A DNA stretch of 62,433 nt, filler included. It is 3 parts of 3 records of this genome, joined end to end, with 100 filler letters (N's around TTAATTAATTAA, not from the genome) between each part and the next. Parts side by side here need not be neighbours in the genome. Positions count along the whole stretch, not along the records: positions 24,782 to 43,269 come from SRR20825006_1306; 2 more parts are not named here. The stretch is one strand, 5' to 3'. How positions within the stretch are numbered: position 1 is the first letter of the stretch; each line of letters opens with the position of its first letter. Shown piece by piece: positions 24,682 through 53,659 of this stretch. A program made the translations under genes and the position numbers. Under the pieces are notes generated by a model. The model made no database searches and was not told where the DNA came from. It saw only the letters and a program-made list of their open reading frames with translations.

Positions 24682-24781
24682 NNNNNNNNNNNNNNNNNNN
24701 NNNNNNNNNNNNNNNNNNNNNNNNNTTAATTAATTAANNNNNNNNNNNNNNNNNNNNNNNNNNNNNNNNNNNNNNNNNNNN
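24682..24781. other. Artificial contig linker
   Basis: N-run, TTAATTAATTAA (stops in all six frames) at 24726-24737, N-run. Confidence 0.97.
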
Positions 24782-24782
24782 G

Positions 24783-25121
24783 ATCTATCCCGAGGGCAAT
24801 TTCATCGAGGCGGGGGATGAGACGCCGTTTTTCCAAATCGGTGAAACCAAATACGGCAAACCGATTTTGGTGCGTGCTTATGATCCGGCTATGTCCTTTG
24901 AAAATGCGGTCAAATTGACGCTGGTTTCCTTTGACAGCACGGTCAAAGCCAACCTCTCCGTCGGTCTGCCGTTCGATTTGCAAGTGATCGAAACCGATAC
25001 CTATAAAGTCACCCACCAACGCCGCATCACCGCCGATGACGAGTATTTCCAAACGATTTCATCGAGGTGGGGCGAGGCGTTGAAGACCGCGATGGACAGT
25101 CTTCCGGGCTTTACCTTTTAA
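24783..25121 (+). CDS. Proteasome-type protease (Anbu), C-terminal part
   Basis: IYPEGNFIEA...FFQIGETKYGKPIL...SFDSTVKANLSVGLPFDL; truncated by contig start. Confidence 0.88.
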   Translation: MYPEGNFIEAGDETPFFQIGETKYGKPILVRAYDPAMSFENAVKLTLVSFDSTVKANLSVGLPFDLQVIETDTYKVTHQRRITADDEYFQTISSRWGEALKTAMDSLPGFTF

Positions 25122-26110
25122 GGCGTCTCGAGGTTGAGATTGGGTTTCGGGAACAGAGCGGGTTGGACGCCGCGCTCGATATAATCCCATGTCGCCATGG
25201 CGATCATCGCCGCATTGTCTGTCGCCCATTTCACCGGCGGCAGGCACAGGTTCACCCCATGTCGCCCGGCCACCTGAGCCATCGCGTCGCGCAATTGCGG
25301 CGAGGCGGAGACACCACCGACAATCACCAAAGAGCGCGGTTTGCACTCCGCCAGCGCCCGGTCCGCCTTGGCCACCAAGACGTCGAGACAGGCGGCGACA
25401 AAAGACGCCGACATGTCCTCAAGACTAACCTCTGGGTGGTTTTCAATATGGCGCGCGACCGAAGATTTCAGGCCGGAAAACGAGAACTCATAGCCCTCAT
25501 TTTTCATCGGTCTGGGGAGGCGCAACACCGGTCTGCCCAATTTTGCCGCCCGGTCAATCGCCGGACCGCCCGGCATCCCAAGCCCCAACATTCGCGCCAC
25601 TTTGTCATAGCTTTCACCAACGGAATCGTCGCGTGTCGTCCCCAAAAGCCGATAAGACCACGGGTCTTTTAAGTCCGCGATCAACGTGTGCCCGCCCGAG
25701 ACCAACATGATCACGGCGGGGAATTCGGTTTGGCCGTCTTCCAACTCAACCGAGCGGATATGCCCACGCAAATGGTTGACGCCATATGCCGGCACGCCCC
25801 ATCCCAAGGACAGCGCCTCAGCGGTGGACAGCCCGACCAAAAGCGAGCCGATCAATCCCGGCCCACGGGTCACGCCAATGCCCGTGAGGTCTTTCGGTGT
25901 TGCGGAGGCCTCATCCATAACCGACTGAATTGTCGGTAAAATAGCCTCAAGATGCGCCCGCGAGGCCAATTCGGGATAGACCCCGCCAAAGGCCTCATGC
26001 ACTTCATATTGCGACACGGTTTTGATTGCGGCCACATGGCCCGAACGATCAACAAGCGCCACCGATGTGTCATCACAGGAGGTCTCGATGCCAAGGATCA
26101 GCGCGCTCAT
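25118..26110 (-). CDS. tsaD: tRNA threonylcarbamoyltransferase TsaD (divergent)
   Basis: LGIETSCDDT, PELASRAH, GPGL, NHLRGH, VSGGHT, FSFSGLKS, TDNAAMIA. Confidence 0.93.
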   Translation of the reverse strand: MSALILGIETSCDDTSVALVDRSGHVAAIKTVSQYEVHEAFGGVYPELASRAHLEAILPTIQSVMDEASATPKDLTGIGVTRGPGLIGSLLVGLSTAEALSLGWGVPAYGVNHLRGHIRSVELEDGQTEFPAVIMLVSGGHTLIADLKDPWSYRLLGTTRDDSVGESYDKVARMLGLGMPGGPAIDRAAKLGRPVLRLPRPMKNEGYEFSFSGLKSSVARHIENHPEVSLEDMSASFVAACLDVLVAKADRALAECKPRSLVIVGGVSASPQLRDAMAQVAGRHGVNLCLPPVKWATDNAAMIAMATWDYIERGVQPALFPKPNLNLETP

Positions 26111-26709
26111 AGGAGGCCCTCCAAAAGGCTGGCGATCTCTGCCTCAGACACCGCGCCAAGCCGTTCGATCCGGGCCGGGGTGACGCGGCAATTGACGATG
26201 GTAGAGGGTGTGGCTTGGTGCCCTGTGCCCGCCACGATCAAATCCGGCGTGCCGTTCAACTGCGCTGCAGCCTCATCAGCCGTGCCCGGTGTCTGTGCCC
26301 CGGATCGGTTGGCCGAGGTGACCAAAAGCGGACCGGTTTCGCGCAACACTGCCAAGAGCCACGCGTCATTGGGGATGCGCAAAGCGATCTCGTCGCGCCC
26401 GGCAAGCCATTCGGGGGCGCGCGCCGGATCAAGACCAAAGACGATGGTCAATGCGCCCGGCACAAAAGGGCTTGAGAGCAGGGTCTGCGCGCTTGGCGTG
26501 ATCCGTGCGCCGAGAGTCCCAATCTGATCCGCATTCGCAACCATGATCGGCAGGTTCTTGTCACGTGGGCGGTGTTTGAGCCGATAAAGCCGATCAATCG
26601 CCGCCGTATGTTGCGGCGATACCGCCAGCCCAAGCACTGTGTCGGTCGGCAAAAGCACAACGCCGCCATGGCTAAGGCATTGCGCAATCTCTCGCACCTG
26701 ATCTGTCAT
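26107..26709 (-). CDS. tsaC: Threonylcarbamoyl-AMP synthase, short TsaC/YrdC type
   Basis: PTDTVLGL, KHRPRDKNL, PGALT, LRIP, TSANRSG, PSTIV. Confidence 0.88.
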   Translation of the reverse strand: MTDQVREIAQCLSHGGVVLLPTDTVLGLAVSPQHTAAIDRLYRLKHRPRDKNLPIMVANADQIGTLGARITPSAQTLLSSPFVPGALTIVFGLDPARAPEWLAGRDEIALRIPNDAWLLAVLRETGPLLVTSANRSGAQTPGTADEAAAQLNGTPDLIVAGTGHQATPSTIVNCRVTPARIERLGAVSEAEIASLLEGLL

Positions 26710-27314
26710 GACAGCACCTCGACAATCGGATAGGCGCGGGCGTTTGCGGCGGGTTTTGGGGCGGCATCGACAAGGCTCAGAAGGGTCGCCATCTTTGCGG
26801 TGTTGGTTTTTGGCGGCGCGGTGCCCTCAACAGGGATATTGCCCGCAAGGTTGTATTTGTCCAAGTTTTCGAGCTGTTTAAGGGCGTCTTCTTCCAAACA
26901 ATGTTCGTAATGTATAAGTGTGCCATCACGGAAAATTCCGAAATGCACATAGGGCCGACCCGCACGGCGCAGCAGGGCGACCGGGGTATGACCGTCGAAC
27001 GCCTCCGCCCCCAGCAGTGCAAAAGCGGGCAGAGCAACGACCGGAATCCCAAGGGTAAAGCCCAACCCATTGGCAAAAGCCGCCGCCGTGCGCGTCACGC
27101 CAAGCCCGCCGGGACCGATGTCACAGCCGATGCGGGTGATCTCTTTCAACGTCGCCCCGATCTCAGTAAGCCCGGTTTCCAACATCAGGCGATACTCGCG
27201 CGATCCCGCAAGGCTCTCGACCTCTGAACTGTCAAACCGGATCGCGCCATCACGGGCCAGCGCCAAGACCGGCACGCCGTTTGAGGCCTGAATAAGCAAT
27301 GTCACCTTGCTCAT
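26706..27314 (-). CDS. tsaB: TsaB/YeaZ-like protein (highly divergent)
   Basis: IGCDIGPGGLGVTRTAAAFANGLGFTLGIPVV aligns to the TsaB GPGSFTGxR...GLA...PxV motif; located between tsaE and tsaC. Confidence 0.72.
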   Translation of the reverse strand: MSKVTLLIQASNGVPVLALARDGAIRFDSSEVESLAGSREYRLMLETGLTEIGATLKEITRIGCDIGPGGLGVTRTAAAFANGLGFTLGIPVVALPAFALLGAEAFDGHTPVALLRRAGRPYVHFGIFRDGTLIHYEHCLEEDALKQLENLDKYNLAGNIPVEGTAPPKTNTAKMATLLSLVDAAPKPAANARAYPIVEVLS

Positions 27315-27781
27315 GCCAGCGTCTCCAATGCGTCTAAAACCGTGTCCCATCGCGGGGCAGAGGCGGAGATGGACAACACCCGCGCCGTGTCATCCTCGCC
27401 AAAACCAAGGCGGATGGACAGGGCAGTGTCATAGCTTTCCGCTATCCGTTCGCCCCATTCGATCACGGCGATGCCTGTGTCAAAATAGTCTTCCAGTCCA
27501 AGGTGATAGAACTCTTGCGCGTTTTTCAGGCGATAGGCATCGACATGCAATACCGTGCCCTTCGGCGTCTCATAGATATTGGCGATGGTGTAGGTCGGGC
27601 TGGTCACCGCCTCGTCTGAGCCAAGGGCGCGGACCAAGGCGCGGGTGAAAAACGTCTTTCCCGCCGCTAAACTGCCATCCAGCAAAATCACATCGCTCGG
27701 GTGCAACAACGGGGCCAGCGCCGCAGCAACGCGCGCGGTCGCGGCTTCGTCTTTCGCAATCAATGTCACTTTGCGCACCAC
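27311..27781 (-). CDS. tsaE: TsaE/YjeE ATPase
   Basis: GSLAAGKT Walker A, VTSPTYT, HVDAYRL, IEWG; start is GTG at 27781 or 27778. Confidence 0.92.
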   Translation of the reverse strand: MVRKVTLIAKDEAATARVAAALAPLLHPSDVILLDGSLAAGKTFFTRALVRALGSDEAVTSPTYTIANIYETPKGTVLHVDAYRLKNAQEFYHLGLEDYFDTGIAVIEWGERIAESYDTALSIRLGFGEDDTARVLSISASAPRWDTVLDALETLA

Positions 27782-27895
27782 GGGGTCTGTCCGGTCTTTG
27801 AAAACGTCCTGCGCGATTTAGGGCAAATCGGGCCAAAGGTCCATGGTGTCAATCACCGGGTCCATCGGTAGCGCGGTCCGTTCAGAACGACCCAA

Positions 27896-28336
27896 TCACT
27901 GATCCGTGTCGAGCCAAATCGTAATCGGACCGTCATTGATCAGGCTCACCTTCATATCTGCACCAAAAATTCCGGTCTCACAGGGGACACCGGTCTGACG
28001 CAGAGCATTGGTGAAATGTTCATAGAGCGCGTTCCCAACGTCCGGTGCAGCAGCGGTGGAAAACCCCGGACGATTGCCTTTTGTCTCGGCGGCGAGTGTA
28101 AATTGGCTGACCACAAGCGCACTGCCTTGGATGTCACGGACAGACAGGTTCATTTTGCCTGCATCATCTTGAAAAATGCGCAGTTTTGAAATCTTGGCGG
28201 CCAGTTTTTCGGCCTGCGCTTCGGTGTCGCCGCGCATCGCACAGACCAAAACCAAAAGCCCCGGCCCGGAGTGCCCAACCACCGCACCATCGACTCGCAC
28301 GGCGGCTTCAGAAATGCGTTGAACCAGCGCTCTCAT
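27896..28336 (-). CDS. dtd: D-aminoacyl-tRNA deacylase
   Basis: MRALVQR, SQFTL, GNRPGF, NDGPIT. Confidence 0.96.
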
Positions 28337-29253
28337 AGGTCATGCGCCCATGGTGGATTGGCCCCGGCGCGGCTGACGGTTACGGCGGCGGCCTTGGCCC
28401 CAAGGGCAAGTGCCGCGCGCAAGGTGGCCTCATCCAAATCGGCAACATGCGCTTTGGTCAGTTTGCCCGCCCGCTGCAGCCCGGCCAAAAGGCCTGCGTT
28501 GAACGTGTCCCCGGCCCCCACTGTGTCCACAACCGTCACTTTTTCGGCGGCCACATGGGTGACATGCCCGGCGGTATAGCCCTTGACCCCATCCCCGCCC
28601 ATGGTCAGGCAGACAAGCTTTGGCCCCTTGGTCAAAAGCAGTTCGATATGGGCCTCAATCTCACCGTCGCCCATCAGCCACAACAGGTCCTCGTCCGAGA
28701 CTTTGACAATATCGGCATGGGTCAGCATATGTTCGATTCGTGCACGATAACGGGCCTCATCACGGATAAATCCGGGCCGAATGTTCGGATCGATCATGGT
28801 GACGCGGGTTTTGGAGGCCTCAACAAACAACCTCTCATAGGCCGCGCCGCAGGGTTCGACCGGCAAAGAAATCCCACCACAAAACACCGCTTCAATCGTG
28901 TCGGGGAGGGGAGGGAGGTCGGCCTCGGTCAACATCCGCCCGGCGGTGTTTTCGTCATAAAACGCATAGGTGGCGTGACCATTGACCAATTTGACAAAGG
29001 CCACGGTACAGGGGCGATCCACGGTGAGGGATAGACTGCCATCCACATGGCTTTGAGCGAGGCTTTGTTTCAACAGATCGCCAAAGAAATCCTCTGAGAA
29101 GCCACTGAAAAAGCCCACATTCGCGCCAAGCCGCCCCAAAGCGATGGCGGTGTTAAACACAGCGCCGCCGGGGTAGGGCGCATAGGCGTCTTCGCCCAGC
29201 GTTGTGGTGCGGGGCAGCATGTCGATGAGGGCTTCGCCTGCGCAAAGGATCAT
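28333..29253 (-). CDS. PfkB-family carbohydrate kinase (fructokinase-like)
   Basis: [30 protein letters not shown]. Confidence 0.92.
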
Positions 29254-31324: not shown

Positions 31325-32440
31325 TTACGCACCCGGCGGGGGCGGCGGCGGCGCGATGGTGAAAAGCTGTGCCAATTCGCGCACATCTTCGGCCTGCAAC
31401 CACCCATCCTGACCGGGGGTCCAGACGTAAGAGCTGCGTTTGAGTGTCCCCTTTGCGGCCATCTGCCCCATTTCCGCCTTGGAAAACGGGCCGGTTGTTT
31501 CGCCATTCTCGGCGATGTGCCAGACATGTTCGACTGGCGGCGGGGGTGGGGTTTGAGCGGCAGGTGCGGGAGATGCGGCGGCAGGACGCGCACCCCATGG
31601 TCCTGCTTGTGCGGCCATCGCCATGCCTATCCCGGCACCCATGCCCGCCCCCATCGAAGACGCCATCGCTGAATTCTCCGCGCCCATGGCTTCGGCGGCG
31701 TTGAATTTCATATAGCCATCGAGGTTGCCCACGATGCCCATCGAGGTGCGCTTGTCCATCGCGGCCTCGACTGCTTCGGGCAAGCTGATGTTTTCAATGT
31801 AAAATTCCGGGATGATCAAGCCGTATTCAGACACCACTTTGGTGATCTCGCTGGCGACCAATTTGCCCATATCCGCCGTGTTTGCCGCCATGTCCAATAC
31901 CGGGATGCCAGAGCTTGCGACGATCCGGCTAAAGGCCTGAACGATGATGTTGCGGATTTGGAACGAGATTTCATCCATGGTGAATTCGCCGTCTGTGCCG
32001 ACGATTTCGGTCAAAAACAGCGCCGGATCAGAGACTTTGACCGTGTAGGTGCCATAGGCGCGGATGCGCACCGGACCGAATTCCGGGTCGCGGCAGATGA
32101 TCGGGTTTTTCGTGCCCCATTTGAGGTCGGAAAACCGCGTGGTATTGACGAAATAGACCTCGGATTTGAACGGCGATTTGAACCCGTGATCCCAATGGTT
32201 CAACGTGGTGAGGATCGGCATGTTGTTGGTTTCCAACATATAAAGCCCCGGCGAAAACACATCCGCCAGCTGCCCCTCATGCACAAACACCGCCGCCTGA
32301 CCTTCGCGCACGGTCAATTTGGCCCCGTATTTGATTTCATGCGCTTCGCGTTCAAACCGCCACACCATCGTGTCACGGGTGTCATCCGTCCAATGGATGA
32401 CGTCAATGAATTCGCCAGAGAGAAAATCGAAAATACCCAT
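31325..32440 (-). CDS. SPFH (YdjI-like) domain protein with C-terminal GYF_2 domain
   Basis: VREGQAAVF, WGTKNPI, IENISLP; WHIAENGETTGPF...VWTPGQDGW; poly-Pro tails. Confidence 0.88.
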   Translation of the reverse strand: MGIFDFLSGEFIDVIHWTDDTRDTMVWRFEREAHEIKYGAKLTVREGQAAVFVHEGQLADVFSPGLYMLETNNMPILTTLNHWDHGFKSPFKSEVYFVNTTRFSDLKWGTKNPIICRDPEFGPVRIRAYGTYTVKVSDPALFLTEIVGTDGEFTMDEISFQIRNIIVQAFSRIVASSGIPVLDMAANTADMGKLVASEITKVVSEYGLIIPEFYIENISLPEAVEAAMDKRTSMGIVGNLDGYMKFNAAEAMGAENSAMASSMGAGMGAGIGMAMAAQAGPWGARPAAASPAPAAQTPPPPPVEHVWHIAENGETTGPFSKAEMGQMAAKGTLKRSSYVWTPGQDGWLQAEDVRELAQLFTIAPPPPPPGA

Positions 32441-32458
32441 CGGGGCCTCCTATGGTCG

Positions 32459-33424
32459 TCAAATATCCTCGCCCATCAATTCGCGTGCAATCACGACAGA
32501 GATCGGGCGGGCAACTTCGGGTCTCATGCCGGGCGCCAGACGCGGATCATAGAGCATCCGTAGCAAAAGTTCGTCATGGCGGGTCAGCAACGCAAACTCT
32601 TCGTCGTCGTTGAAAATCGACGGCCGTGCGCGCGGGCTGTCATTGGCCAGTCCCAGGCCCTGAGCGATTTCCTCGTGGAAACACGAGCGGCGCAACAGGT
32701 CCGGGTTCTCGGCGCGGATGATCGCCACCGCCTTGCGATACGCGCCGTCATTGGCGGGATCAGAGGCGATCACCAAGCAATAGGTCGAGCGCGGCATGTC
32801 GATGACAGAGCGGATCGCGTTCGCGCCGATGCCCGGAATGAGCTGGCTCAGACGCGGGCCAATGGCGCGGCGTTCGTCTTCGTTGAGCACCAGAATATTG
32901 AAGTTCGGGCGGGAGGACACGCTGATCGCATGGCCCGAGGCACGAGCCAGTTGCCCGGCAAAACTTTCAATCGTCGCGCGGTCCTTTTGACGCTGTTCCA
33001 TCGGCACAGAGGAGCCGAATTCAATGCCGAGCCGCACGGGCACATCCCAGCGATGCAGATCAGAGGGCGTGGTTTTGGCGATAAACTGCCCACCGACCGA
33101 GGTGTATTCGTCATTGAGCGCGATGGCGTCAAAATTCACCGCAAGCTGGCGCGCGGAAAAGGGCGTATCCGGCCCGCCCCCGTCCGTGCGCAACAGGTCA
33201 TTGGCCAAAAGATCGGCCTGAACCCGTGCGAAATAGGTCTGAAGCAAACGGCTTTCGGTGCTGCGCGGGGTGACGCTGGTGCTGTCTGGACGCAAAACGG
33301 GTTGCGATGCGTGGCTGGGCGGGCGCGCGATGGGCGGTGTGCTTGGACCGGGCACACAGGCCGACAGCGCGAGCCCTGCGCTCGCGCCGAGGACTGTCAA
33401 TCTTGCCCGACCCAAGGGACGCAT
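32459..33424 (-). CDS. DUF2927-like lipoprotein
   Basis: Lipobox LSAC; CFHEEIAQGLGLANDS...PSIFNDD. Confidence 0.82.
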   Translation of the reverse strand: MRPLGRARLTVLGASAGLALSACVPGPSTPPIARPPSHASQPVLRPDSTSVTPRSTESRLLQTYFARVQADLLANDLLRTDGGGPDTPFSARQLAVNFDAIALNDEYTSVGGQFIAKTTPSDLHRWDVPVRLGIEFGSSVPMEQRQKDRATIESFAGQLARASGHAISVSSRPNFNILVLNEDERRAIGPRLSQLIPGIGANAIRSVIDMPRSTYCLVIASDPANDGAYRKAVAIIRAENPDLLRRSCFHEEIAQGLGLANDSPRARPSIFNDDEEFALLTRHDELLLRMLYDPRLAPGMRPEVARPISVVIARELMGEDI

Positions 33425-34605
33425 CAGGAACGCACCGATGGCCCGGCGGCGTTGCTGGTGGCTTTGGCGGAGGCCAGAGTGTCGCGCAGATTGGCTTCCA
33501 TGGTTTTGAGTTCGACCTCGGCCTCGGCGCGCTTGCGTTTGCCCTCGTCGGCGATCTGAAGGCTTTCCTCAATGGTGGCGATCAATTCGGCATTGGCGGT
33601 TTTCACGGCCTCGATGTCAAACACGCCGCGTTCCATTTCGGTGCGCACGATTTTGTTGCCCTCGCGCAGGTTTTTAGCATTCGCGGTCAACAACTCGTTG
33701 GTCAGATCCGTCGCGGCTTTGATGTCCTTCGCGGCCTCGGTCGAACGCTGAATGGTCACGGCTTGGGCCAATTGGGTTTCCCAAAGCGGCACGGTGTTGA
33801 CCAGTGTGGAGTTGATCTTGGTGACCAGGGATTTGTCGTTTTCCTGCACCAAGCGGATTGAGGGCAGAGACTGCATCGTCACCTGACGGGTCAGTTTCAG
33901 ATCATGCACCCGACGTTCCAAATCGTCGCGCGCCGCGCGCAGATCGCGCAATTCCTGCGCTTTGATCACTTGGTCCTGCTCAGGCGCGGCATCGACGGCG
34001 GCGGCCAGAGCGGGGATGTCGCTCTCGTCCAATTCCTTGATCTTCAATTCGCCCGCCGCAATGTAAATCGCCAATTCATCATAGAAATTCAGCGTCTTAT
34101 CATAAAGCATATCGAGCGATTTGATGTCTTTGAGCAGCTTGTGCTCATGCGTCAAAAGATTGTCGGTGATCTTGTCGATCTGGGTTTGAATGGTCTCGTA
34201 GCGGGCGATGAATTTTGCCATCGGTGCGGCGCGGCCCAACAGTCTTTCCCACCAGCTGCGTTTGCGGCGCACATCGAGTTCGGACACGGAAAACCCGCGA
34301 ATGGTGGTGACGATGGAGCGCAGAGAGTCGCCCGCAGGCCCCACATCCTTGTTGCGCACATCTTCCAGCATCGCTTGTGAGATCACTTGCAATTCAGCCT
34401 GCGCCCCCGAGCCAAAGCGGACGATCGAATTGGTGTCCCCCATGTTGATCTCGGATTTCGCACGCTCGATTTCCGCGCTCAAAGGTGTGTTTGCCAAAGC
34501 CACCGGGTCGATCAACTCGCCCTTTGGCTCTGCGAGGACAACGGCGGTAACGGCTTCGACGTCTTTCAATGCGGCTTCGGCCTTTTGGCGGGTGGTGTCG
34601 GACAT
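33424..34605 (-). CDS. telA: Toxic anion resistance protein TelA/KlaA family
   Basis: Coiled coil; LERRVHDL, LPSIRLVQENDKSL, NTVPLW. Confidence 0.88.
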   Translation of the reverse strand: MSDTTRQKAEAALKDVEAVTAVVLAEPKGELIDPVALANTPLSAEIERAKSEINMGDTNSIVRFGSGAQAELQVISQAMLEDVRNKDVGPAGDSLRSIVTTIRGFSVSELDVRRKRSWWERLLGRAAPMAKFIARYETIQTQIDKITDNLLTHEHKLLKDIKSLDMLYDKTLNFYDELAIYIAAGELKIKELDESDIPALAAAVDAAPEQDQVIKAQELRDLRAARDDLERRVHDLKLTRQVTMQSLPSIRLVQENDKSLVTKINSTLVNTVPLWETQLAQAVTIQRSTEAAKDIKAATDLTNELLTANAKNLREGNKIVRTEMERGVFDIEAVKTANAELIATIEESLQIADEGKRKRAEAEVELKTMEANLRDTLASAKATSNAAGPSVRS

Positions 34606-34641
34606 GGAACGGTTCCCCAGTTAAGAACTTGAAAAGTTTAC

Positions 34642-35547
34642 TTATTTGATGCCTTCGCGGGCAAGACGGTCACGCAGGACCTCAATCTCGATATCAAGAT
34701 CAGTTTTGCTACCCAAAAGTAACGCCTCATTGCGCGCGGTGAAATTTTGTTCGAGATCATCAAGCAGCGCGAACCAATCCTGACGCGCCTCAGCGTTTTT
34801 GGTGCGCGCCCAAAGGTCAGCATATTTGATCGTCGCATCGCGCGCGCCCAGCAAATAAACCCCAAGATATTTGCGCGCAGCGGTCAAGTCGCGCGGGTCT
34901 TCCTCGACAGTGCGAAACATATCGCGGGCGGTTTTGATAAAGGCGTCAAGGCGGGTTTCGGCGGCGCGGTCGCCCGACCGCGACAACGCTTCGCGCATGG
35001 CGTTCAAATGCGCTTCCGCCTCGTCAATCGCTTTGGACACCCGGTCTTGTTGAAACGTGTCAATGTCATCCATGCCTTTGTTTTTCAAAGGATCAAAACC
35101 AAAGGCGAGGCTGTGCAGCACGGTGCCGAGACTGGCAAAAATCACCGTCTCGACAGGGCCCCAGCCGAACCAGCCGACAAGGCCAAGCCCGACGCCGGTC
35201 AAGACAGAGCCAAAGATTTTGCGCGGGATCGCGGGGCGACGCGAGATTTTGCGCGCCTCATAGGCTTCTTCGGCCTTTAACCCTTCACGGGTCAAAAACG
35301 CCGCCCCCACAAGACATCCCAAGGCCGCTAAATAGCCTGCCATAACAATGGGTTCGGCGGAAAATGCTTTCCACGACAAGGGCAGACCCGCGTAGAACAA
35401 CAGGTTTGAGCGCGCGCCGACGCGGGACGGACGTTTGCCATCAAAAGGGCGGTGTTGCGGGGGCGGGGGTGTGCCCGCGCCCTCCGGTTTCGCCGGAGGT
35501 TTCGGGCTGCCATCGGGTGAATAGGTCGAACCATACCGTTGGGCCAT
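34642..35547 (-). CDS. XpaC-family (5-bromo-4-chloroindolyl phosphate hydrolysis) membrane protein
   Basis: Four TMs, then EDPRDLTAARKYLGVYL, DLDIEIEVL; classic upstream partner of telA. Confidence 0.85.
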   Translation of the reverse strand: MAQRYGSTYSPDGSPKPPAKPEGAGTPPPPQHRPFDGKRPSRVGARSNLLFYAGLPLSWKAFSAEPIVMAGYLAALGCLVGAAFLTREGLKAEEAYEARKISRRPAIPRKIFGSVLTGVGLGLVGWFGWGPVETVIFASLGTVLHSLAFGFDPLKNKGMDDIDTFQQDRVSKAIDEAEAHLNAMREALSRSGDRAAETRLDAFIKTARDMFRTVEEDPRDLTAARKYLGVYLLGARDATIKYADLWARTKNAEARQDWFALLDDLEQNFTARNEALLLGSKTDLDIEIEVLRDRLAREGIK

Positions 35548-43410: not shown

Positions 43411-46245
43411 TCACACCTCGATCAGGCGCACGTCCGGGTCGAGCAGGTATCCGCCGCTGTTGTTGATGATGAGTTCTTTCAACCCCTCGCGACGCAGGGT
43501 GTTGATGGTGACGTAGAGCCTGTTTTGTGCGGCATCCGGCATGATCGACTCGTCGGGCCACACCTCCTCGAACAGCGCGTGAGGATCGATCGCTTCGCCA
43601 GGGTGCGAGAGGCGATGGTCCACCAGGGTTTGCAGCAGCCTGAAGGGAGTCTCGCGGCGCGCCATATCGATCCAGGACATCTCGCCGGGCGCGCGAAACG
43701 CGCGCGAGCGCGTGTCGAGCAGGAGCGCCTCCGCGGTCGGATCTTCGAGCCCCAGCGTGAACCTGCGTTGGATATCCTCTGGCAAGTTCTTCTCGAGGAG
43801 CATCCAGCCAAGGCGCGTCTCACTGCAACGCTCGAGCGGGATGTCGGAGAGTCCGTCGTCGTGGTACATCAGCTTCGAGAGCCTCGTCAGGATCTCCTCG
43901 AGCAACTGCTTGGTCTTGCGGACCTTGTTCGCCTTCTTCGCCTTGAGGTAGGCGGGCAGGTGAACGTGGCAGTAGTAAAGGTCGATGAGGGTCGGGAGGA
44001 AGGCGTCGTTCTCCAACCCTTCGATGACCTTCTCTGCTTGTTCGAGTTTGGCGAGCGCGTCTTTTTGCTTGCCATCGAGCGCCAGAAAGCGCGCGTGCGA
44101 GACGAGGTAGCTGACGCGTGAGGTCGCCGAGTGGAGGCTGTCAAAGAGCGCGTATCCTTTCGCGAAGGTCTCGCGCGCCTTCTCCTCTCGGCCATCGAGC
44201 TCGAGCGCGACAGAGCAATAGAGCCTGCAAGCCGCGACCAGTGGGAGGATGCCGTTTGCCTCGAGGTGGAAGATGGCGCGCTCGTAAGCCACGATCGCGG
44301 TCTTGAACTCGCGTTGACTCACGCGCAACTGCCCGAGCAAAAACAACCCGGTCCCCTGGAGCCATCGGAGCGCGTGTCGGTTGGCCAGCTCGAGCAGGCG
44401 CACGAGGATCTCATCCGCCTTCTCGTGCTCGCGCTCGTCCACAAAATACCACGCCATCATGCGCATCGTGTGCCCGAGCGAGATGATGTCACCGACCTCC
44501 TCGAAGACCTCGAGCGCGCCTCGGAACATCTCCTCGGCGCGCTCGTGTTTTAGCGCCATTCTCATCGCGTAGCCGACATACATGCGCACGCGGCCGAGCT
44601 GGCGTCTGGCAGTGGTCGTGCCCTCGAGCTCCTCGAGCAGCTCCTCGAAGCGCGCCGTGGAGTGACCCCACTCGCGCGCCTCGGCGTATGTATCCGCGTA
44701 GGACATCAGGAGCTCGATGCGCTCGCGCTCCGCGCCCAGTTCGATCGCCAGCGGGACCGCCTCCTCGATGATCCCGCGCGCGTGCTCGTGCGTCGAGATG
44801 CGGAAGTTGCTCGCGATGCCTGTCATCGTGGAGAGCTTCCAGATGGGGGCCTCGGCGAGCGCTAATGCGCGCTCGAGGAACTTCATCCCATCTCTGGGGT
44901 TCCAGCGCTGTGACGCGCACGTCGCCCGCGCCAACCAGTAACAGGCTTGCAGATCGGCGGGGAGCGTCTCGCTCGCGGCCTCGATATGAGGCAGCATCCG
45001 CTCGTGGAGCTTGTTCATCGAGAACGCGTCCATACGCACGAGGTGCACGAGGTGGAGCCCGAGGCCTGCTTCCAACACTGCCTTTGTATCGGCGGACGGA
45101 TCTGCGAACAGGTGCTCGAAGGCGCTCGAGAAGTTCGCGTACTCTCTCGCGATGCTCGGCCCGAGCTCGTGCCATTGATAACCGCGCGTCTCCTGGAAGA
45201 GTTGCCAGCCGCGTTCGGCGAAGACGCTCGCGTGGTTGTCGTGGATCTGTTTCTCGAGCGCCGGATTTTCTCTGGTCTTGTCGAGCGCGAACAGGCGCAC
45301 GCTCTCGAGCATCTTGCCACGAAAGCGCTCTCCTTCATCCTCCACCAAGAGGAGGTTGTACTCCCGGAGACGCTCGAGCAGCCCGAGGCCATCCTCGAGC
45401 CCGGTGCGCGCGAGCAACTCCTCGGCTTCATCGAACCCGAAGCCATCCTGGAACCTCGCGCACGCCATGACCGCGCGCTGTTCTTGCTCGTCGAGCAACC
45501 CCCAGGACCACTCGAGCGCGGCGTTGAGGGCGCCGAGCGTGCTGTCACGCGAGCGGCGCGAGCGGATGCGTTCGAGGAGTTTCCCCGGCTTGAACATCGA
45601 GAGCCGGCTCGCGAGCAGTGAGATCGAGAGCGGCAACCCCTCGACGAGCACGCCGAGTTCGAGCAGCGCTTCGTGAGTCGCGGGGTCTTCGTCGTGAGGG
45701 AGGGCGATGTGCGCGGGCTTGTGCGCCTCGAACAACGCGATGACCGATTCCGCTTGTTTGGCAGGGTCGAAGGGCGTCAGCGCGATGATTTTCGCGCGCT
45801 CCGATGTGGGCACGTGGCGCGAGGCGACGACCAGGCGAGTCTTCGTGTCTTCGAGCTTTGCCGCGAGCGCTTCGATCAGGCCGAGCAGGTGCTCCGCGTT
45901 ATCGAGGACCATCAGGTGTCGCTCGCGCGAAGCGCTCGCGCTCGCGATCAGCTCGAGCATCGCCTCTTCGTCGGGATCTGGCTGATTCGGCGATGGAGGG
46001 ATCTCGAGCAGGACCAATAGCGCCGAGAGCGCCGCGCGCTCTTCGGTGTATGATGTCAGGTCGAGCCTGGCCATCTCGCCATCCTCGACGCGCTCGTCGA
46101 TGGCGGCGCGCAGGAGCGTCGACTTGCCCACGCCCGGCGAGCCTGTGATCGCGATAAAGGCCGAGTCGTCAGCGAGCCAGGACAGGAGTTGGTCGAGCTC
46201 TTCAGCGCGACCGATCAGAGGCATGGAGGTGGTGTCGTGTGCCAT
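43411..46245 (-). CDS. STAND-type ATPase with TPR repeats and C-terminal winged-helix domain
   Basis: LIGRAEEL, GSPGVGKS, VLDNAEH, EGLPLSI, ALEWSWGLL, TPR helices, LFEEVWPDE...NRLYVTINTLRR...GYLL. Confidence 0.85.
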   Translation of the reverse strand: MAHDTTSMPLIGRAEELDQLLSWLADDSAFIAITGSPGVGKSTLLRAAIDERVEDGEMARLDLTSYTEERAALSALLVLLEIPPSPNQPDPDEEAMLELIASASASRERHLMVLDNAEHLLGLIEALAAKLEDTKTRLVVASRHVPTSERAKIIALTPFDPAKQAESVIALFEAHKPAHIALPHDEDPATHEALLELGVLVEGLPLSISLLASRLSMFKPGKLLERIRSRRSRDSTLGALNAALEWSWGLLDEQEQRAVMACARFQDGFGFDEAEELLARTGLEDGLGLLERLREYNLLLVEDEGERFRGKMLESVRLFALDKTRENPALEKQIHDNHASVFAERGWQLFQETRGYQWHELGPSIAREYANFSSAFEHLFADPSADTKAVLEAGLGLHLVHLVRMDAFSMNKLHERMLPHIEAASETLPADLQACYWLARATCASQRWNPRDGMKFLERALALAEAPIWKLSTMTGIASNFRISTHEHARGIIEEAVPLAIELGAERERIELLMSYADTYAEAREWGHSTARFEELLEELEGTTTARRQLGRVRMYVGYAMRMALKHERAEEMFRGALEVFEEVGDIISLGHTMRMMAWYFVDEREHEKADEILVRLLELANRHALRWLQGTGLFLLGQLRVSQREFKTAIVAYERAIFHLEANGILPLVAACRLYCSVALELDGREEKARETFAKGYALFDSLHSATSRVSYLVSHARFLALDGKQKDALAKLEQAEKVIEGLENDAFLPTLIDLYYCHVHLPAYLKAKKANKVRKTKQLLEEILTRLSKLMYHDDGLSDIPLERCSETRLGWMLLEKNLPEDIQRRFTLGLEDPTAEALLLDTRSRAFRAPGEMSWIDMARRETPFRLLQTLVDHRLSHPGEAIDPHALFEEVWPDESIMPDAAQNRLYVTINTLRREGLKELIINNSGGYLLDPDVRLIEV

Positions 46246-46491
46246 GGGTCTCTTTCGATAAGGTTCTCGATACAGGTCGAGCTTAACCATCCAGATGCAA
46301 GATCTCTCTTATAACCCATCCTGCCCATGTGTTGGTAGCTCCGTGACCATGAACCGAGCATATCAGACGAATAGCGCCACCGCTTCGGTGACTCGGGGGA
46401 CAAAAATTGGAGATGCTCTGGTCCTGCGGTATGCTGCTCTGAGAGTCAAGCCCTCGAAAGATCCATGGATGGATAGGATAACCAAAGCAAT

Positions 46492-49400
46492 ATGGCTGGA
46501 GCGCTTCACATAGGCCAGGTCGATTCGGTCACGCTCGATCTCGAGTGCGGTTCGTGTCAGGCAAGGTTTCGCATCACCCCGAGCGAGTCCACCGTTCGCG
46601 CCCGCACCATCGATTGCATGCGCTGCGGTCAGCCGCTCGAGGTCCCCGCATACGACGCCAACCGTGGCTGGAAACGCGCCGCGCCAGGTTCGGTGTTTCA
46701 TCGCTTTCGGTCCGAACTCCCCGCGCCGCTGCTCGACTCCGACGCGCTCGACGCGCCAGCTCCGACGCCAAAGTCGACGCCAAGGCCTGAGCCAGGGCCG
46801 GAGCCACAGTCAGAGCTAAAGTCAGAGCCAGGCAGCGAACTTCGCCAGGAACCGAGCGTCCGTGCTCCCCGCAAGGAGCGTCCACGGTTTGCCTTCGAGA
46901 CCTTTGTCCCCGGAGAACCTCAGCGCGCGACCCGCGAAGTCGACGCCCGCGTCGCGCCCAGGGAGCTCGCGCCCGAGAGCAGCGCCCAGGATGAGGATCT
47001 CGACGTGTTGCTCGGCAAGGCGCGAGCGCTCAAGCGCTCGCGCGGTCAGGATACGCCAACAAATGACTCCGCGCCCACGCCCTCGCTCGATGAAGCTGCC
47101 CCCGTGATCGAGGATGTCTCCAAGCCCACCGAGCCGCTCTCGAGAGAAACCATCGAGAACATCACCAGCCAGGACGCCATCGACGTGGCGTTCGAGCCGC
47201 CGCTCGAGGCGGCGTCTCTCGAGGAGAGCGTGGTGATTCACGATAGCGCTGATTCAGACCCTTCATGGGCCGAGAGCGCATCTCATGCCGAGAACGAGGA
47301 TCGCGAGCAAGGTATCGAGCTCGCCAGACCTCCAGAGTTCTTGCCAACCTTTGAACCGGAGCCCGAGCGCTTCGAGCTCCAACTCGGCGATCAAATCATC
47401 GGCCCGCTCGATACAACCAGCGTGCACGCGCTGCTCGCTGGCGGACTCCATGGCGTGGCTCGCGTTCGTGTGGTCGGCGAGGATGGCTGGCGCGCGCTGG
47501 ACGAGCACGAGGTCTTCGGGATCTTTTTCGATGATTTCGAGGAGGAGAGCGAGGAGCCAGAAGATGCGATCCTCCTCGATGACGAGGTCGAGGATGCGTT
47601 CTTCAAGACGCTCCCGATGGCCTCGCTCGCCGAACATATCGAGCTCCCACCTCCTGTCGAAGAGGGGCTCGCGAGCCCCTCCGAGATCTTGAGAGCTCCT
47701 CCGCTCCCTGCCGACGCGCTCTCCGAAGTGCTCGAGGATGAGCCAGAGGATGAGCCAGAGGATGATTTGGAGGACGCGCCAGAAGACGAAGCTCCTGCCA
47801 GCGAGTCGACTCCACGAACCGAAGAGGGCTCCACAGAGATCCTCCTCGACGAGGATCTCTTCGACATCGGAGATGCGCCCGCCACAAAGCCTCTCGAGCC
47901 GCCTCGTTCGGCTCCTACAGAGCCTTCCCCGGTCGAGTCAGCGCCCGAAGCAAAGCATCTCGAGCAAGAGCAGGCGGTCACGGCGCCAGCGGCCAAGACG
48001 CCCTCCGAGACAGCGGAGGAGGAGGCAGCGAAAGCACCCGAGGTCGAGGGTATCTCCGAGGAGCCCGAGGTCGAACCTGCCGCAGAGCCGCTCGCGGCGC
48101 CTGTTTCCACGCGCCAGCCGATGGGGGCAGGCGCTCGCATCCTCGTGGGGTTGCTGATCCTCGCGCTCGTCGTCGGCGCGTTTGTCGCAGGAGATCGGCT
48201 CAAGCCGATCTCCAAGAACCTCGAGCAACGCGCGACCGCCACGGCCAACGAAGTCCGCATGATGATTTCGCTCGAGCCCGAGGTCGCGAGCGCGCAGGCG
48301 GTCTCGACCGCGAGCACGATGGTCAAGCTCGCCGCCCAGCAAAACTGGCAATCGCGCGAACGTCAGCGCGAAGTCGCCGCGTCGTTGCTCGAAGAGGGCG
48401 ACGCGACAGCCGCGAATAACGTCCTGCGGCACCTCTGGCTCGCCGAGCCAAGACGCAACGCATCACTCGCCATGCTCTACGCGAAGGCGCTGCTCGCGGT
48501 AAACGAGTACAGCCTCGCCAGAGATGTCGCCGTCGAGGGGAGGATGCTCTCGCCGGATCTTCCTGGATTCGAGGCGATCTTCCTCGAGGCCGTCAAGCAA
48601 GACCCCGCGCTCCACCCCGAGACGCGCACGATCGTGCCGGACAAGGAGATCGACGAGATCCGCGCGCTCGGAGGTGGCAAGTCCATCTCGTTCAAGCTGC
48701 GACAGAAGGGGGAGAACCTCTACGCCTTCAAACCGGCGCAGGTGGAGTGGGGCGAAGGTTGGCGCTCCGAGGTCGCGGCGTATCTGTTGTGCGAGGCTGT
48801 TTCGTGTAACTTCGAGGTCCCCGAGAGCTTGCCCGCGCGCATCAGCCGCGAGGACTTCGAGGAGCTCTACGGGCGACACACCTCTCCAAAGCAAAACGCT
48901 TACAAGGAGCGCTTTGGCGAACTCACCTGGGTCACCGAGAAGGGCCCCGATGGCGAGGAGCGCGAGTATCTCCATGGCGTGATCAAGGAGTGGGTCCCCG
49001 GGTTTGTCGAGTGGCCTATCGAATACATCGGCACCTGGAACTCGCTCGTGGATTCTGGCCAGAAGCTCTCCAACCTGGATCGCAGCTTCAACGCCGCCTT
49101 CTCTTCGCTGCGGCTCAAGCAGCAGCGCAAGTACTGGTATCCGATCACCAGGGAGCGCGAGGGAGCGTCGACGAGGGAGATCGCCAGCGGCCTCTCGAGC
49201 CTGACGCTGTTCGACTTCCTCACCAACAACTGGGATCGCTACTCGCAGGTCGAGGCGTACTACGGCGTCAACAACCACTTCAAGGATGGGCGGTTCCTCT
49301 CACTGGACAATGGCGCGGCGTTTCACTTGCAACCGATGCTGGTGGTCAAGCAACGCTTTGGCCTCGTCAGTCGCTTTAGCCAGAGGTTTGTCGTCGGCGT

Positions 49401-49566
49401 GAGGATGATGCAACGCGAGCAGTTCGATCCGGTCTTCTTCCCGAGCGACTCCCAGGAAGCAAACACTCGCCTCGATGTCTTCTGGGAGCAGCGCGAGAAG
49501 GCGCTCGCGCGCATCGATGAGCTCGTCGAAGAGCGCGGGGAAGACGCCGTCCTGTGCTTTGAATAA
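46492..49566 (+). CDS. Zn-ribbon / acidic linker / GYF-like / TM / TPR / FAM20-four-jointed-like kinase protein
   Basis: CGSC...CMRC; IIGPL...VGEDGWRAL; TM at about 48139-48189; LGGGKS, AFKP, EVAAY, FDFLTNNWDR, LDNG. Confidence 0.8.
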   Translation: MAGALHIGQVDSVTLDLECGSCQARFRITPSESTVRARTIDCMRCGQPLEVPAYDANRGWKRAAPGSVFHRFRSELPAPLLDSDALDAPAPTPKSTPRPEPGPEPQSELKSEPGSELRQEPSVRAPRKERPRFAFETFVPGEPQRATREVDARVAPRELAPESSAQDEDLDVLLGKARALKRSRGQDTPTNDSAPTPSLDEAAPVIEDVSKPTEPLSRETIENITSQDAIDVAFEPPLEAASLEESVVIHDSADSDPSWAESASHAENEDREQGIELARPPEFLPTFEPEPERFELQLGDQIIGPLDTTSVHALLAGGLHGVARVRVVGEDGWRALDEHEVFGIFFDDFEEESEEPEDAILLDDEVEDAFFKTLPMASLAEHIELPPPVEEGLASPSEILRAPPLPADALSEVLEDEPEDEPEDDLEDAPEDEAPASESTPRTEEGSTEILLDEDLFDIGDAPATKPLEPPRSAPTEPSPVESAPEAKHLEQEQAVTAPAAKTPSETAEEEAAKAPEVEGISEEPEVEPAAEPLAAPVSTRQPMGAGARILVGLLILALVVGAFVAGDRLKPISKNLEQRATATANEVRMMISLEPEVASAQAVSTASTMVKLAAQQNWQSRERQREVAASLLEEGDATAANNVLRHLWLAEPRRNASLAMLYAKALLAVNEYSLARDVAVEGRMLSPDLPGFEAIFLEAVKQDPALHPETRTIVPDKEIDEIRALGGGKSISFKLRQKGENLYAFKPAQVEWGEGWRSEVAAYLLCEAVSCNFEVPESLPARISREDFEELYGRHTSPKQNAYKERFGELTWVTEKGPDGEEREYLHGVIKEWVPGFVEWPIEYIGTWNSLVDSGQKLSNLDRSFNAAFSSLRLKQQRKYWYPITREREGASTREIASGLSSLTLFDFLTNNWDRYSQVEAYYGVNNHFKDGRFLSLDNGAAFHLQPMLVVKQRFGLVSRFSQRFVVGVRMMQREQFDPVFFPSDSQEANTRLDVFWEQREKALARIDELVEERGEDAVLCFE

Positions 49567-49712
49567 GCCTCGTGCGCGTCGTGCTCGATCCGATGGCGAG
49601 ATAAGAGTATGATGAAGATACTCTTTCCTATCGAAACAGCGCAGGCGCCAGCGGGGGCGCGATGTTCGGTCGAGGTAAGAGCTCGTGCTATGAACTGCCC
49701 TGGAGATATGAA

Positions 49713-52700
49713 ATGTCACGCAAGTTGTTGTCTCTGTTTCTCTTCCTGTCGATGTTCTTCATCGCGCCGCTGACCGCTGGCGCGCAGACATTGACGACCA
49801 CGTTGGCTGGTGGCAACAGCTTCAACGGCAACATGTTCGAGATCGTCGCGCGCGATGACATCACCATCGATGGCTTCGATGTGCACATCGCCACAGGTAC
49901 CCAGACCATCGAGGTCTACTATCGCGCGGGCTCATACTCGGGCTTCGAGGGGAGCTCGGCGGGGTGGACGCTCGCGGGCTCGGCCACAGTGTCTGGCGCA
50001 GGTCAGGGGGTCGCCACGAGCGTGCCCATCGATGTGAACCTCGATATCTCCTCCGGCTCTCGCTACGCGTTCTACGTCACCAACACCTCGGGGACGATGT
50101 ATTACACCGACGGTGGCACAGAGGGCTCCGTCTACGCGCAGAACGCGGACCTCTTCTTCTACGAGGGGATCGGCAAGGCGTATCCGTTCGGGAGCACATT
50201 CCGACCGCGCGTATGGAACGGCGTGATCCGATACTCCAAGAATTCTCTGCCTCCCACGATCAACCCGATCTCTTCGCAGAGTACCAACGAGGACACACCC
50301 AAGACGGTCTCGGTCGGGATCAGCGATCCCGATACGGCGGCGGCAAACCTGACGGTGACGGCGACCTCTTCGAACGCTTCGGTGGTCGCCAACAGCGGCC
50401 TGAACGTGAGCGGCACCGGGACGACTCGCACGTTGCAAATCACTCCGGCGGCGAATGCTTTCGGGACGACCTCGATCACCGTCACTGTCTCCGATGGCAC
50501 GAGCACGGCGTCGACGAACTTCAACCTGACGGTCAACTCGGTCAACGACGCGCCATCATTTGTCTCTGGCGGCGATGTGACCGTCGCCGAAGACAGCGGC
50601 GCGTACTCGATGGCCTGGGGAGCTTCGCTCTCTGCCGGGCCTTCCAACGAGTCGAGCCAGACCCTGAGCTTTAACCTGTCGTGTAACTCAGGCGCGCTCT
50701 TCTCCTCGCAACCTGCCATAAGCAATGGGAACGTGCTCTCGTTCACGCCCGCCGCCAACGCCTCCGGGACCTCCGATTGCAGCGCGACCTTGCAGGACTC
50801 TGGCGGCACCGCCAACGGTGGCGTCAACACGAGCGCCCCGGTGAACTTCCAGATCGTGATCAGCGCGGTCAACGATCCTCCCACCGCGAGCCCGCAATCG
50901 GTCACCACGCCAGAAGACACTGACGTGGACATCACGCTAGCGGGCGCAGATGTCGAACCGGGCGCGCTCCAGTTCATCATCGTGACGCAACCCACGCATG
51001 GCTCGCTCACAGGAACGGGGGATGTGCGCACCTACGCGCCTGACGCGGACTATGCGGGCTCGGACTTCTTCACCTACAAAGTGCGCGATGCTGGCGGCGC
51101 GGAGAGCACCGAAGAGACCGTCTCGATCACGATCACGCCGGTCAACGACGCGCCTCGCTTTATCGCGCCGACGCCAGATGGGATGACGCCGATTGTCGCG
51201 CCGGAGGGCGTCGCGCTCGATCTTCAGGTCGACGCCGAGGATGTCGACGGCGACCTCATCACCCTTGGCGCCACGGGGGTTCCGCAAGGTGCAATGTGGG
51301 ACCCATCGGCGGGGACCTTCTCGTGGACCCCTGGTTACCAGGACGCAGGCGATCACCTGGTGACCTTCTCGGCCACCGACGGCGTGTTGACCACGACGCG
51401 CGACATCCTGATCACGGTCACCTTCGCTGACGCAGACATGGACGGCGTGCCAGACTCCTGGGAGATGGCAAACGGCCTCGACACCACGACCAATGATTCT
51501 GATGGCGACCTGATCTCGGATCTCTACGAGGTCGGTGATGACCTCGATAACCCTCACGATTCGGATGGCGATGGCAACCTGGACGCGCTCGAGCTGGATT
51601 CGGATGGTGATGGCATCCAGGACGGCTCCGAGTCGGGCGACAATGACATCACCACCGACCCCATCGACACCGATGGCGACGGCATCCCCGACTATCGTGA
51701 CATGGACTCGGATGATGATGGCGCCAGCGATGGGATGGACAACTGCCGCCTGATCATCAACGCCGATCAGGCAAACCTCGATGGCGACTTCTTCGGTGAC
51801 GCCTGTGACGATGACATCGACGGCGACATGCTCGCCAACAGCGTCGAGTTGATGCTGATGCTCGATCCTCAGAACCCCGACAGCGATGGCGACAGCATCC
51901 CGGATGGTTTCGAGGTCGGCGATCCTGCGATGCCCACTGATACGGATATGGACACGTTGATCGACGCGCTCGATCCAGACTCGGATAATGACGGCGTCGA
52001 TGACGTGCTCGAAGCAGGTGACGCGGACCTGATGACCGCGCCCGTCGACACGGACATGGACGGTACGCCTGACTTCCGAGACGAGGACTCCGATGGCGAT
52101 CAGATCCTCGACTCCGAGCCTGACAACTGCCGCATCGTGGCTAACCCCGATCAGGTCGACACCGATATGAACGGCGAGGGCGACGCGTGTGATGGCGACC
52201 TCGACGGTGATAGCGTGTCCAACGAGGAGGACAACTGCCCGATGCTCGCCAACATGGATCAGGCCGACCTCGATATGGACATGACAGGCGATGCCTGCGA
52301 TGGCGACGTGGACGGTGACGAGATCGATAACGACACGGACAACTGTCCGCTCGTGGTCAACATGGATCAACTCGACACCGACGGAGACGAACTCGGCGAC
52401 GCGTGCGATGACGATGATGATGGCGATGGAGCCATCGACGAGGAGGATAACTGCCCGCTCGTCGCCAACGAGGATCAGCTCGACACCGACGGTGATGATC
52501 TGGGCGACGCGTGTGATGATGACGATGACGGTGACAACGTCGCGGACGAGGATGACGCCTGCCCGCTCGAGGCTGGTGATGGCGCTGACGGCTGCGAGGT
52601 CGTCGAGGAGCCCGATCTCGGCTCGAACGGGGACGCAGACATGGGCATGGATAACGACATGGGCATGTCTGCGGATATGGGCGACATGGGGCCACCCCCG

Positions 52701-53623: not shown

Positions 53624-53659
53624 GCCGACCGCGACCTCCTGCAACACCGCTCGACAAAA

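Follow-up and report, generated by a model that had tools for sequence, protein, structure and literature searches.

Four genes for the biosynthesis of N6-threonylcarbamoyladenosine (t6A), in the order tsaE-tsaB-tsaC-tsaD, fill positions 25118-27781 on the minus strand of the window, by which I mean the whole stretch of 62,433 nucleotides (nt) of DNA that was analysed (Table 1). All three gene junctions are ATGA overlaps, the one between tsaE and tsaB requiring that tsaB start at the ATG at 27314 (202 amino acids, aa) and not at the upstream ATG at 27350, and the unit lies between dtd and a convergent gene of the Anbu type; open reading frames (ORFs), profiles and the reading of the junctions agree with the original prediction in all of these respects. 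That prediction had regarded the cassette as a second or repurposed t6A-type pathway, acquired from elsewhere and probably additional to the housekeeping set.

Table 1. Features of the tsaEBCD locus and of the remainder of the operon-bearing contig (positions along the window).
Feature	Position	Strand	Evidence and assignment
tsaE, 156 aa, GTG start	27311..27781	-	PF02367 1.5e-36; TIGR00150 101.7 bits (cutoff 60.1); P-loop ATPase of the t6A transferase complex
tsaB, 202 aa (214 aa from the ATG at 27350)	26706..27314 (or ..27350)	-	PF00814 31.9 bits (cutoff 24.8); diverged, non-catalytic TsaD partner
tsaC, 200 aa	26107..26709	-	PF01300 2.5e-39; TIGR00057 132.9 bits (cutoff 123.2); single-domain threonylcarbamoyl-AMP synthase
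tsaD, 330 aa	25118..26110	-	TIGR03723 365.1 bits (cutoff 296.1); threonylcarbamoyl transferase
Spacer between dtd and tsaE, 114 nt	27782..27895
dtd (D-aminoacyl-tRNA deacylase), upstream, outside the cassette	27896..28336	-	TIGR00256 176.3 bits
pfkB-family sugar kinase, 4-nt overlap with dtd	28333..29253	-	PF00294 4.8e-43
Anbu (proteasome-family) gene, 3' end only, cut by the contig start	24782..25121	+	last 84 codons 98.8% identical to B30
STAND/AAA-TPR NTPase, 959 aa	within 43411-61167
Protein without Pfam match, 1024 aa	46492-49566
Cadherin/thrombospondin-repeat protein, 1056 aa	within 43411-61167
Ser/Thr kinase-AAA-TPR protein, 1219 aa	within 43411-61167

The window itself is a composite, a circumstance that the original prediction overlooked. 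An artificial linker at 24682-24781, which on direct reading consists of 44 N, then TTAATTAATTAA, then another 44 N, joins two unrelated contigs and lies 336 nt away from the tsaD stop. The left contig (positions 1-24681, GC content 0.52) is 100% identical to the complete genome G001. The right contig (positions 24782-62433, GC content 0.61), which carries the tsaEBCD operon whole, has no match in the DNA of G001 except two fragments at 63-65% identity, and it shares 99.1% DNA identity over 9218 nt with Celeribacter baekdonensis B30 (G002); on this similarity it is assigned to Celeribacter. With a different organism on each side of the linker, the underlying assembly is mixed or contaminated. 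G001 has its own scattered tsaD, tsaB and tsaE along with a two-domain sua5 (PF01300+PF03481), and a search of such a mixed assembly would return this canonical set from the other organism and hence a false "second pathway"; since the canonical genes of G001 belong to that other organism, two sets in the mixed assembly would be trivial. G001 was ruled out as a proxy for the source genome, for it matches the left contig only, and between its RpoB and the one of the Rhodobacteraceae reference genome the identity is 72%, the values being 78-96% for the other 22 family genomes compared.

The tsaD product covers positions 1-310 of the 314 of its equivalog profile, above the cutoff, and its best solved relative, TsaD of Thermotoga maritima, matches it over the full length (1.8e-79) with no large indels. 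Residues E9-T-S-C12-D13, S138-G-G-H141, H113, H117, D169 and D298 are invariant or at least 97% conserved. By alignment, the metal ligands H113, H117 and D298 correspond to H109, H113 and D296 of T. maritima and to H111, H115 and D300 of Escherichia coli, S138-G-G-H141 to Ser136-Gly-Gly138 and His139 of E. coli, and D169 to its Asp167; the Mg ligands D13/D14 are kept as well. Passages of PMC6009658, PMC11648230 and PMC7913687 assign to these positions the roles of Zn/Fe and Mg ligands, of a Ser-Gly-Gly-His loop holding the carbamoyl group and the threonine carboxylate, and of an Asp holding the ribose, and in E. coli TsaD the threonine carboxylate and side chain are described in PMC7913687 as held by Cys10, Ser136, His139 and the Zn ligands.

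The sole active-site change found in TsaD is Ser270 at the position of Asn272 of E. coli and Salmonella, a residue which, according to PMC7913687, contacts N1 of the adenine of threonylcarbamoyl-AMP (TC-AMP). Ser is present in all 32 cassette-type sequences and Asn in 27 of the 28 canonical ones. This is a conservative polar change at a position that is not a defining catalytic residue, and Ser can still hydrogen-bond the adenine. It is one of seven class-specific substitutions that separate cassette TsaD from the canonical type; word searches of PMC5814804 and PMC11648230 gave no roles for the others, Asn272 being the only assignable one. The V238 position was dropped as a cassette signal: it is Glu in Salmonella and Gln in Thermotoga, and so not universal.

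TsaC is, as had been claimed, the short form of 200 aa, a single-domain protein matched by PF01300 only and thus without the Sua5_C domain. Its K45-x-R47 and S132-x-N134, the KxR and SxN motifs, are kept in 23 of 23 cassette TsaC. The alignment was made to E. coli TsaC (2mx1/1hru). In TsaE, G36 and G41-K42-T43 of Walker A, as well as S61-P62-T63, H79, D81, Y83, R84, E108 and W109, are likewise kept in 23 of 23 cassette-type sequences, and the role of the SPT(F/Y)T loop is described in PMC6009658. TsaB is indeed strongly diverged: it scores 62.1 bits with TIGR03725, below the equivalog cutoff of 69.3, and its best solved relative, TsaB of T. maritima, is met at E 2.9e-4 across the interface helices. 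Its invariant residues D65, G67-G69, R75 and F80-L84 fall in the predicted interface with TsaD. A model of the TsaB-TsaD complex scored 0.89, the best of three controls reaching 0.02, where the mark applied is reached by 51 of 78 solved complexes and by 2 of 108 mismatched pairs; contact agreement among the three runs is at least 95%, the partner has a predicted local distance difference test (pLDDT) score of at least 91, and the modelled interface comprises residues 47-62 and 88-104 of TsaD and 41-46 and 71-88 of TsaB. The model indicates likeness rather than proof of binding, and because like complexes have been solved, the score may reflect memory of them. At the level of sequence the catalytic motifs are intact, with no sign of another amino-acid substrate or acceptor. 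The threonyl- and metal-binding residues have not changed, which speaks against the claim of a repurposed pathway, and the product is presumably ordinary t6A.

The t6A genes of E. coli are scattered, and the gene order of the actinobacterial or Firmicute type is tsaE-tsaB-rimI-tsaD. Compared with the latter, the cassette has tsaC at the place of rimI and forms a separate clade, although its TsaD is marginally closer to that type (43-51% identity to sampled genomes of the phylum of G008, against 40-47% to canonical Rhodobacteraceae), and in those sampled genomes tsaE lies 1-2.5 kb from tsaD. The alr-groEL1 operon of Mycobacterium tuberculosis (PMC5335608) is of this type. In that type and in the cassette alike, tsaE, tsaB and tsaD are clustered in the same order. 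Among solved systems, that of T. maritima (TsaB2D2E2 and TsaC2; PDB 6n9a, 6nak, 6s84; PMC6009658, PMC5814804) is the best match for TsaD and TsaB, having the same four components, the same metal ligands and the same TsaE SPT(F/Y)T loop; it differs in its two-domain TsaC2/Sua5, where the cassette has a single-domain TsaC, in the marginal similarity of TsaB, and in the Asn of the GGVAAN motif of Thermotoga TsaD, where the cassette has Ser. The TsaB-TsaC-TsaD-TsaE system of E. coli and Salmonella (PDB 4ydu, 6z81, 3zet, 2mx1; PMC7913687) shares with the cassette the single-domain TsaC with KxR and SxN, and its TsaD pocket residues Cys10, Ser136, His139, Asp167, His111, His115 and Asp300 all have cassette counterparts; its TsaD, with Asn272, is the less alike of the two (239 bits versus 270 bits for Thermotoga). 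TsaD is somewhat closer to Thermotoga/Actinomycetota-type than to proteobacterial sequences. Canonical Rhodobacteraceae, finally, have the same pathway in the same host family, with one copy of each gene per genome, but their genes are scattered, with hemD and gpsA on either side of tsaD and some 10 kb from there to tsaE, their Sua5 carries the extra PF03481, and their genes and those of the cassette are separate clades. The long Sua5 said to be usual in the family was indeed found in all five canonical genomes tested, as in G001. Cassette TsaE and TsaC are 31-45% and 28-38% identical, respectively, to those of 23-24 canonical genomes (from the family, the sample of the phylum of G008, and G001).

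Whether the cassette is the sole t6A set was assessed by proxy, in B30 and other cassette-bearing relatives, by Pfam profile searches. Of 25 cassette-bearing genomes, some of which may be the same or near-identical, 24 have just a single TsaD and a single TsaB among their PF00814 matches, and none of the 25 has a second complete TsaD or a second TsaB. The exception, G009, a 10-Mb metagenome-assembled genome (MAG) labelled Actinomycetota, has the cassette, a 22-bit match and a C-terminal fragment, namely a 193-codon frame (G009:C2:481654-482010) which matches the C-terminal third of TsaD only (2.9e-26) and could be a native-gene remnant, a contig-edge fragment or contamination. In each of the five genomes searched for TsaC and TsaE there is one PF01300 match and one PF02367 match over the cutoff, the remaining PF02367 matches scoring 21 bits inside open frames of 343-348 codons. 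A TsaD match is present in 291 of 301 family genomes, once only in 290 of these, and none of the 291 holds both the cassette and the canonical TsaD.

The places where the native genes would be expected tell the same story. The canonical genome G123 has its tsaD flanked by hemD and gpsA, the position next to gpsA being the one expected of canonical relatives, and its tsaE flanked by the genes of a PAS protein and an APH-family kinase. This neighbourhood of 18 ORFs is collinear in Celeribacter sp. SCSIO 80788 (G004), in B30 and in G180, and in all three the tsaD and tsaE of G123 have no match; they are the only annotated genes so affected, two short unannotated ORFs of G123 being also unmatched in G004 and B30, and one ORF lying beyond the end of the G180 locus. 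The distance between hemD and gpsA is about 75 nt in G004, and in seven of seven carriers searched by DNA the flanks of the slot match and the interval is 0.9-1.4 kb shorter. Synteny therefore has the native tsaD and tsaE slots as preserved but empty in the three Celeribacter/Pacificibacter-type genomes examined. The supposition that the cassette is additional to a housekeeping set is not supported: in carriers it provides the only complete TsaD and the only TsaB (in B30 and 24 other carriers), with both native slots vacant in B30, SCSIO 80788 and G180.

The cassette is rare, and its distribution is patchy. A TsaD of this type is present in 8 of the 301 family genomes, in 8 of 351 genomes of the class, in 2 of 251 genomes of the phylum of G008 (the unpublished G400 and G460 being among the non-carriers) and in 1 of 301 genomes of the phylum of G010, that one being G010 itself. 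The eight family carriers are set apart by 56-89% identity (E at most 1e-113), the next best match standing at 4e-72 and 45%. By record name the carriers include Celeribacter, Pacificibacter, Planktomarina, Yoonia sediminilitoris, Puniceibacterium, Roseibium denhamense and Labedaea rhizosphaerae, of which Yoonia, Puniceibacterium antarcticum, Roseibium and Labedaea are known from the TsaD protein alone and not from the locus; MAGs labelled Actinoplanes, Catenuloplanes, Actinomycetota and Cytophagales add to these. The E-B-C-D order is found in 29 of 30 cassette-type loci, the thirtieth being cut by a contig end, in six of seven further family genomes, where the seventh is cut in the same way, and in G514. 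Independent Celeribacter assemblies, among them the complete chromosome L026 and B30, have the same gene order and neighbours. The GC content of the cassette matches that of each host. In the Actinoplanes-labelled MAG (L048, 9650-15206) the cassette is flanked on one side by glyA and atpB and on the other by a YrdC-like gene of native type, prmC and prfA, and its context of atpB, glyA, prmC and prfA is a typical actinobacterial one; native tsaD, tsaB and the native-type operon were not found in this MAG, and a second PF01300 protein persists there. In another carrier, the alphaproteobacterial G815:C1, tsaC and tsaD adjoin and the only TsaB is 218 kb away (2284012, 2502151), from which it appears that the cassette can break up after acquisition. 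A contig of a MAG labelled Abyssibacter sp. (L028) is Celeribacter-like, with TsaD, PfkB and Dtd 88%, 78% and 82% identical to those of the window, and is probably mis-binned or mislabelled.

The 32 cassette sequences come together as a single clade in the TsaD tree, with a Shimodaira-Hasegawa-like approximate likelihood ratio test (SH-aLRT) support of 100 and a stem of 1.31 substitutions/site, and the 13 canonical Rhodobacteraceae form a separate one (SH-aLRT 97), with G001 as their sister. Forcing all 34 family TsaD into one clade costs 401 log-likelihood (lnL) units, with a p-value of 1.5e-127 in the approximately unbiased (AU) test, from which three long rows (L051-L053) were excluded. The cassette clade has SH-aLRT support of 99 in TsaC and of 93 in TsaE. 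Cassettes of Actinomycetota- and Cytophagales-labelled MAGs join the cassette clade, apart from the canonical Rhodobacteraceae; within it most Rhodobacteraceae group together (SH-aLRT 95), and Roseibium, which belongs to another family, is nested inside them. In the RpoB tree, family carriers are interspersed with canonical genomes, and 10 carriers as one RpoB clade are rejected (lnL difference 117.9, p-AU 1e-4). G273, a cassette-bearing MAG, was excluded from that test, having one full and one partial RpoB match on different contigs (C91, C17); it may be contaminated, and its deep tree position is to be read carefully. On these trees the four cassette genes would represent a distinct lineage that moves as a unit. 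The description of the cassette as self-contained and of acquired type has thus held up, the four genes travelling together and TsaD, TsaC and TsaE branching with cassettes of other phyla, and not, as a vertical origin would have it, with the vertically inherited orthologues of the Rhodobacteraceae.

Here, I propose that Celeribacter baekdonensis most probably relies on tsaEBCD alone for its housekeeping t6A37 synthesis, and that this operon spread horizontally and displaced the native genes. By the established biochemistry of the family, TsaC would make TC-AMP from threonine, bicarbonate and ATP, and TsaD, with TsaB to hold it and the ATPase TsaE to cycle it, would move the threonylcarbamoyl group to A37 of ANN-decoding tRNAs. 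The cassette would have displaced the resident tsaD and tsaB wherever it is found; in those Rhodobacteraceae genomes that were searched for them, tsaE and the two-domain sua5 would have gone as well. As the canonical genes sit in conserved slots, the simplest history would be one in which the cassette was acquired several times and the native genes were lost after each arrival. Transfer rather than ancient paralogy probably lies behind this pattern.

A number of points weigh against this proposal. The sole-copy status is taken from B30 (99.1% over 9218 nt) and other relatives and not from the window's own assembly, and several carriers are MAGs of uncertain label or purity. The trees are "quick" IQ-TREE runs, unrooted and with SH-aLRT support only; with no root inferred, neither donor nor direction can be named. 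Canonical sequences were sampled from 13 genomes of the family and 11 of a single other phylum, the species proxy is the single gene RpoB with frames chosen by homology, and the groups in both AU tests were fixed after the tree had been seen. Moreover, the long stem of cassette TsaD, a TsaB below its equivalog cutoff and Ser270 in 32 of 32 sequences make altered enzymology conceivable.

How the cassette came to be where it is could also be told without transfer, as ancient paralogues sorted by differential loss or as a fast-evolving native lineage, a history that fits the grouping of most Rhodobacteraceae within the cassette clade (SH-aLRT 95), the agreement of cassette GC with host GC and the absence of mobile-element genes flanking the cassette within the window. 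Such a history is nevertheless improbable: none of the 291 family genomes with a TsaD match has both sets, the conserved slots of the canonical genes are vacant in carriers, the carriers are not one RpoB clade, Roseibium nests in the Rhodobacteraceae cassette clade, which the Actinomycetota- and Cytophagales-labelled cassettes also join, the Actinoplanes-labelled locus lies in a typical actinobacterial context, and a one-clade TsaD tree is rejected. A mere assembly artefact, in which the operon or its position stems from mis-assembly or contamination, would find a foothold in the linker that joins two unrelated contigs 336 nt from the tsaD stop; its probability is practically nil, however, with the operon wholly inside the right contig and the same order and neighbours in independent Celeribacter assemblies.

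As to function, a second t6A-like pathway working beside the housekeeping genes, be it with another aminoacyl-carbamoyl group, on another acceptor, or as a backup under stress, toxin or phage attack, now looks very unlikely. A foreign-type cassette in a long-stemmed clade of its own, a diverged TsaB and a TsaD with Ser for Asn272 are features that would suit it, and in a mixed assembly the canonical tsaD, tsaB, tsaE and sua5 of G001 could pass for the second set; yet that set is of another organism (RpoB 72%, no DNA match to the operon contig beyond the two fragments), none of the 25 carriers has a second complete TsaD or a second TsaB, none of five a second TsaC or TsaE over the cutoff, the native tsaD and tsaE slots are empty in three of three genomes, no family genome has both types, and the residues of the threonyl and metal pocket are unchanged. 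It is a distinctly slim prospect, too, that the pathway is the sole one but its chemistry has changed, with a variant product (such as one resembling N6-hydroxynorvalylcarbamoyladenosine, hn6A, or another aminoacyl-carbamoyl adduct) or a different handling of TC-AMP or response to inhibitors driving the spread. The TsaD stem of 1.31, the seven class-specific substitutions including Asn272 to Ser in 32 of 32, and the joint replacement of all four partners, suggestive of co-adaptation, are in line with it; against it, Cys10, Ser136, His139 and the Zn ligands are kept, as are KxR and SxN of TsaC, Ser can still hydrogen-bond the adenine, and no accessory genes ride with the cassette. In its boldest form, which I hold to be equally doubtful, the cassette is a co-adapted, horizontally mobile t6A module that repeatedly overwrites native machinery because it is functionally different, be it in the hold of TsaD on TC-AMP, where Asn272 has become Ser, in the A37 adduct formed, or in escaping an inhibitor or phage factor directed at the native TsaBDE/Sua5; if true, Celeribacter and the other carriers would translate on a biochemically distinct t6A system.

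Around the operon, the convergent stops of tsaD (25118-25120) and Anbu (25119-25121) share the TTAA at 25118-25121 and leave no spacer. In B30 the convergent gene is complete (243 aa, PF00227) and stands behind transglutaminase, Alpha-E and circularly permuted ATP-grasp genes, a locus from which it can be assigned to an Anbu operon. On the other side, the 114-nt spacer gave neither a sigma-70-like site nor a terminator in a scan which models alphaproteobacterial promoters poorly; promoter-like sites numbered 0 in the promoter and terminator scan, and terminator-like sites 4, with 5.2 expected. Co-transcription of tsaEBCD with pfkB-dtd is possible on this layout. The dtd gene adjoins the cassette in Celeribacter only; the Pacificibacter loci have it 4.4 kb off, and the Planktomarina loci lack it. 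Along the contig, identity to B30 (L023) is 100% over tsaE, tsaB, dtd and pfkB but falls to 96% in the 300-nt bin 25983-26282, where tsaC meets tsaD, and to 95-98% in a handful of further bins, which suggests small recombination tracts between strains. Further along, 31325-35547 holds a cluster of SPFH/Band-7-GYF, DUF2927, TelA and Halogen_Hydrol-family genes upstream of a pseudouridine synthase gene, and 43411-61167 a row of large signalling and surface genes (Table 1). The end of the left contig (24600-24681) resembles, by eye, the reverse complement of a tRNA 3' half (TGGTGCCCCCGGTCGGACTCGAACC...).

No description of the cassette or of its spread was met in the literature searched, subscription papers and supplementary files lying outside that scope, and a word search of a 2022 review (PMC9654439) returned no mention of operon, cluster or horizontal transfer. 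Routine annotation already names TsaD, as seen for that gene, and the four genes seem to be routinely annotated as TsaB, TsaC, TsaD and TsaE; what the papers searched seem not to contain is an account of this four-gene operon as a distinct lineage that spreads horizontally and displaces its native counterparts. The interest of the cassette is thus evolutionary rather than mechanistic, there being no evidence for new chemistry. Few tRNA-modification pathways are near-universal. The synthesis of t6A is among them, and the proteins that carry it out act as an interacting set; there are hints that the four cassette proteins are co-adapted and must be exchanged as a unit. To sum up, tsaEBCD would illustrate how, in nature and in several separate lineages, an entire pathway serving a core translation function has been displaced.

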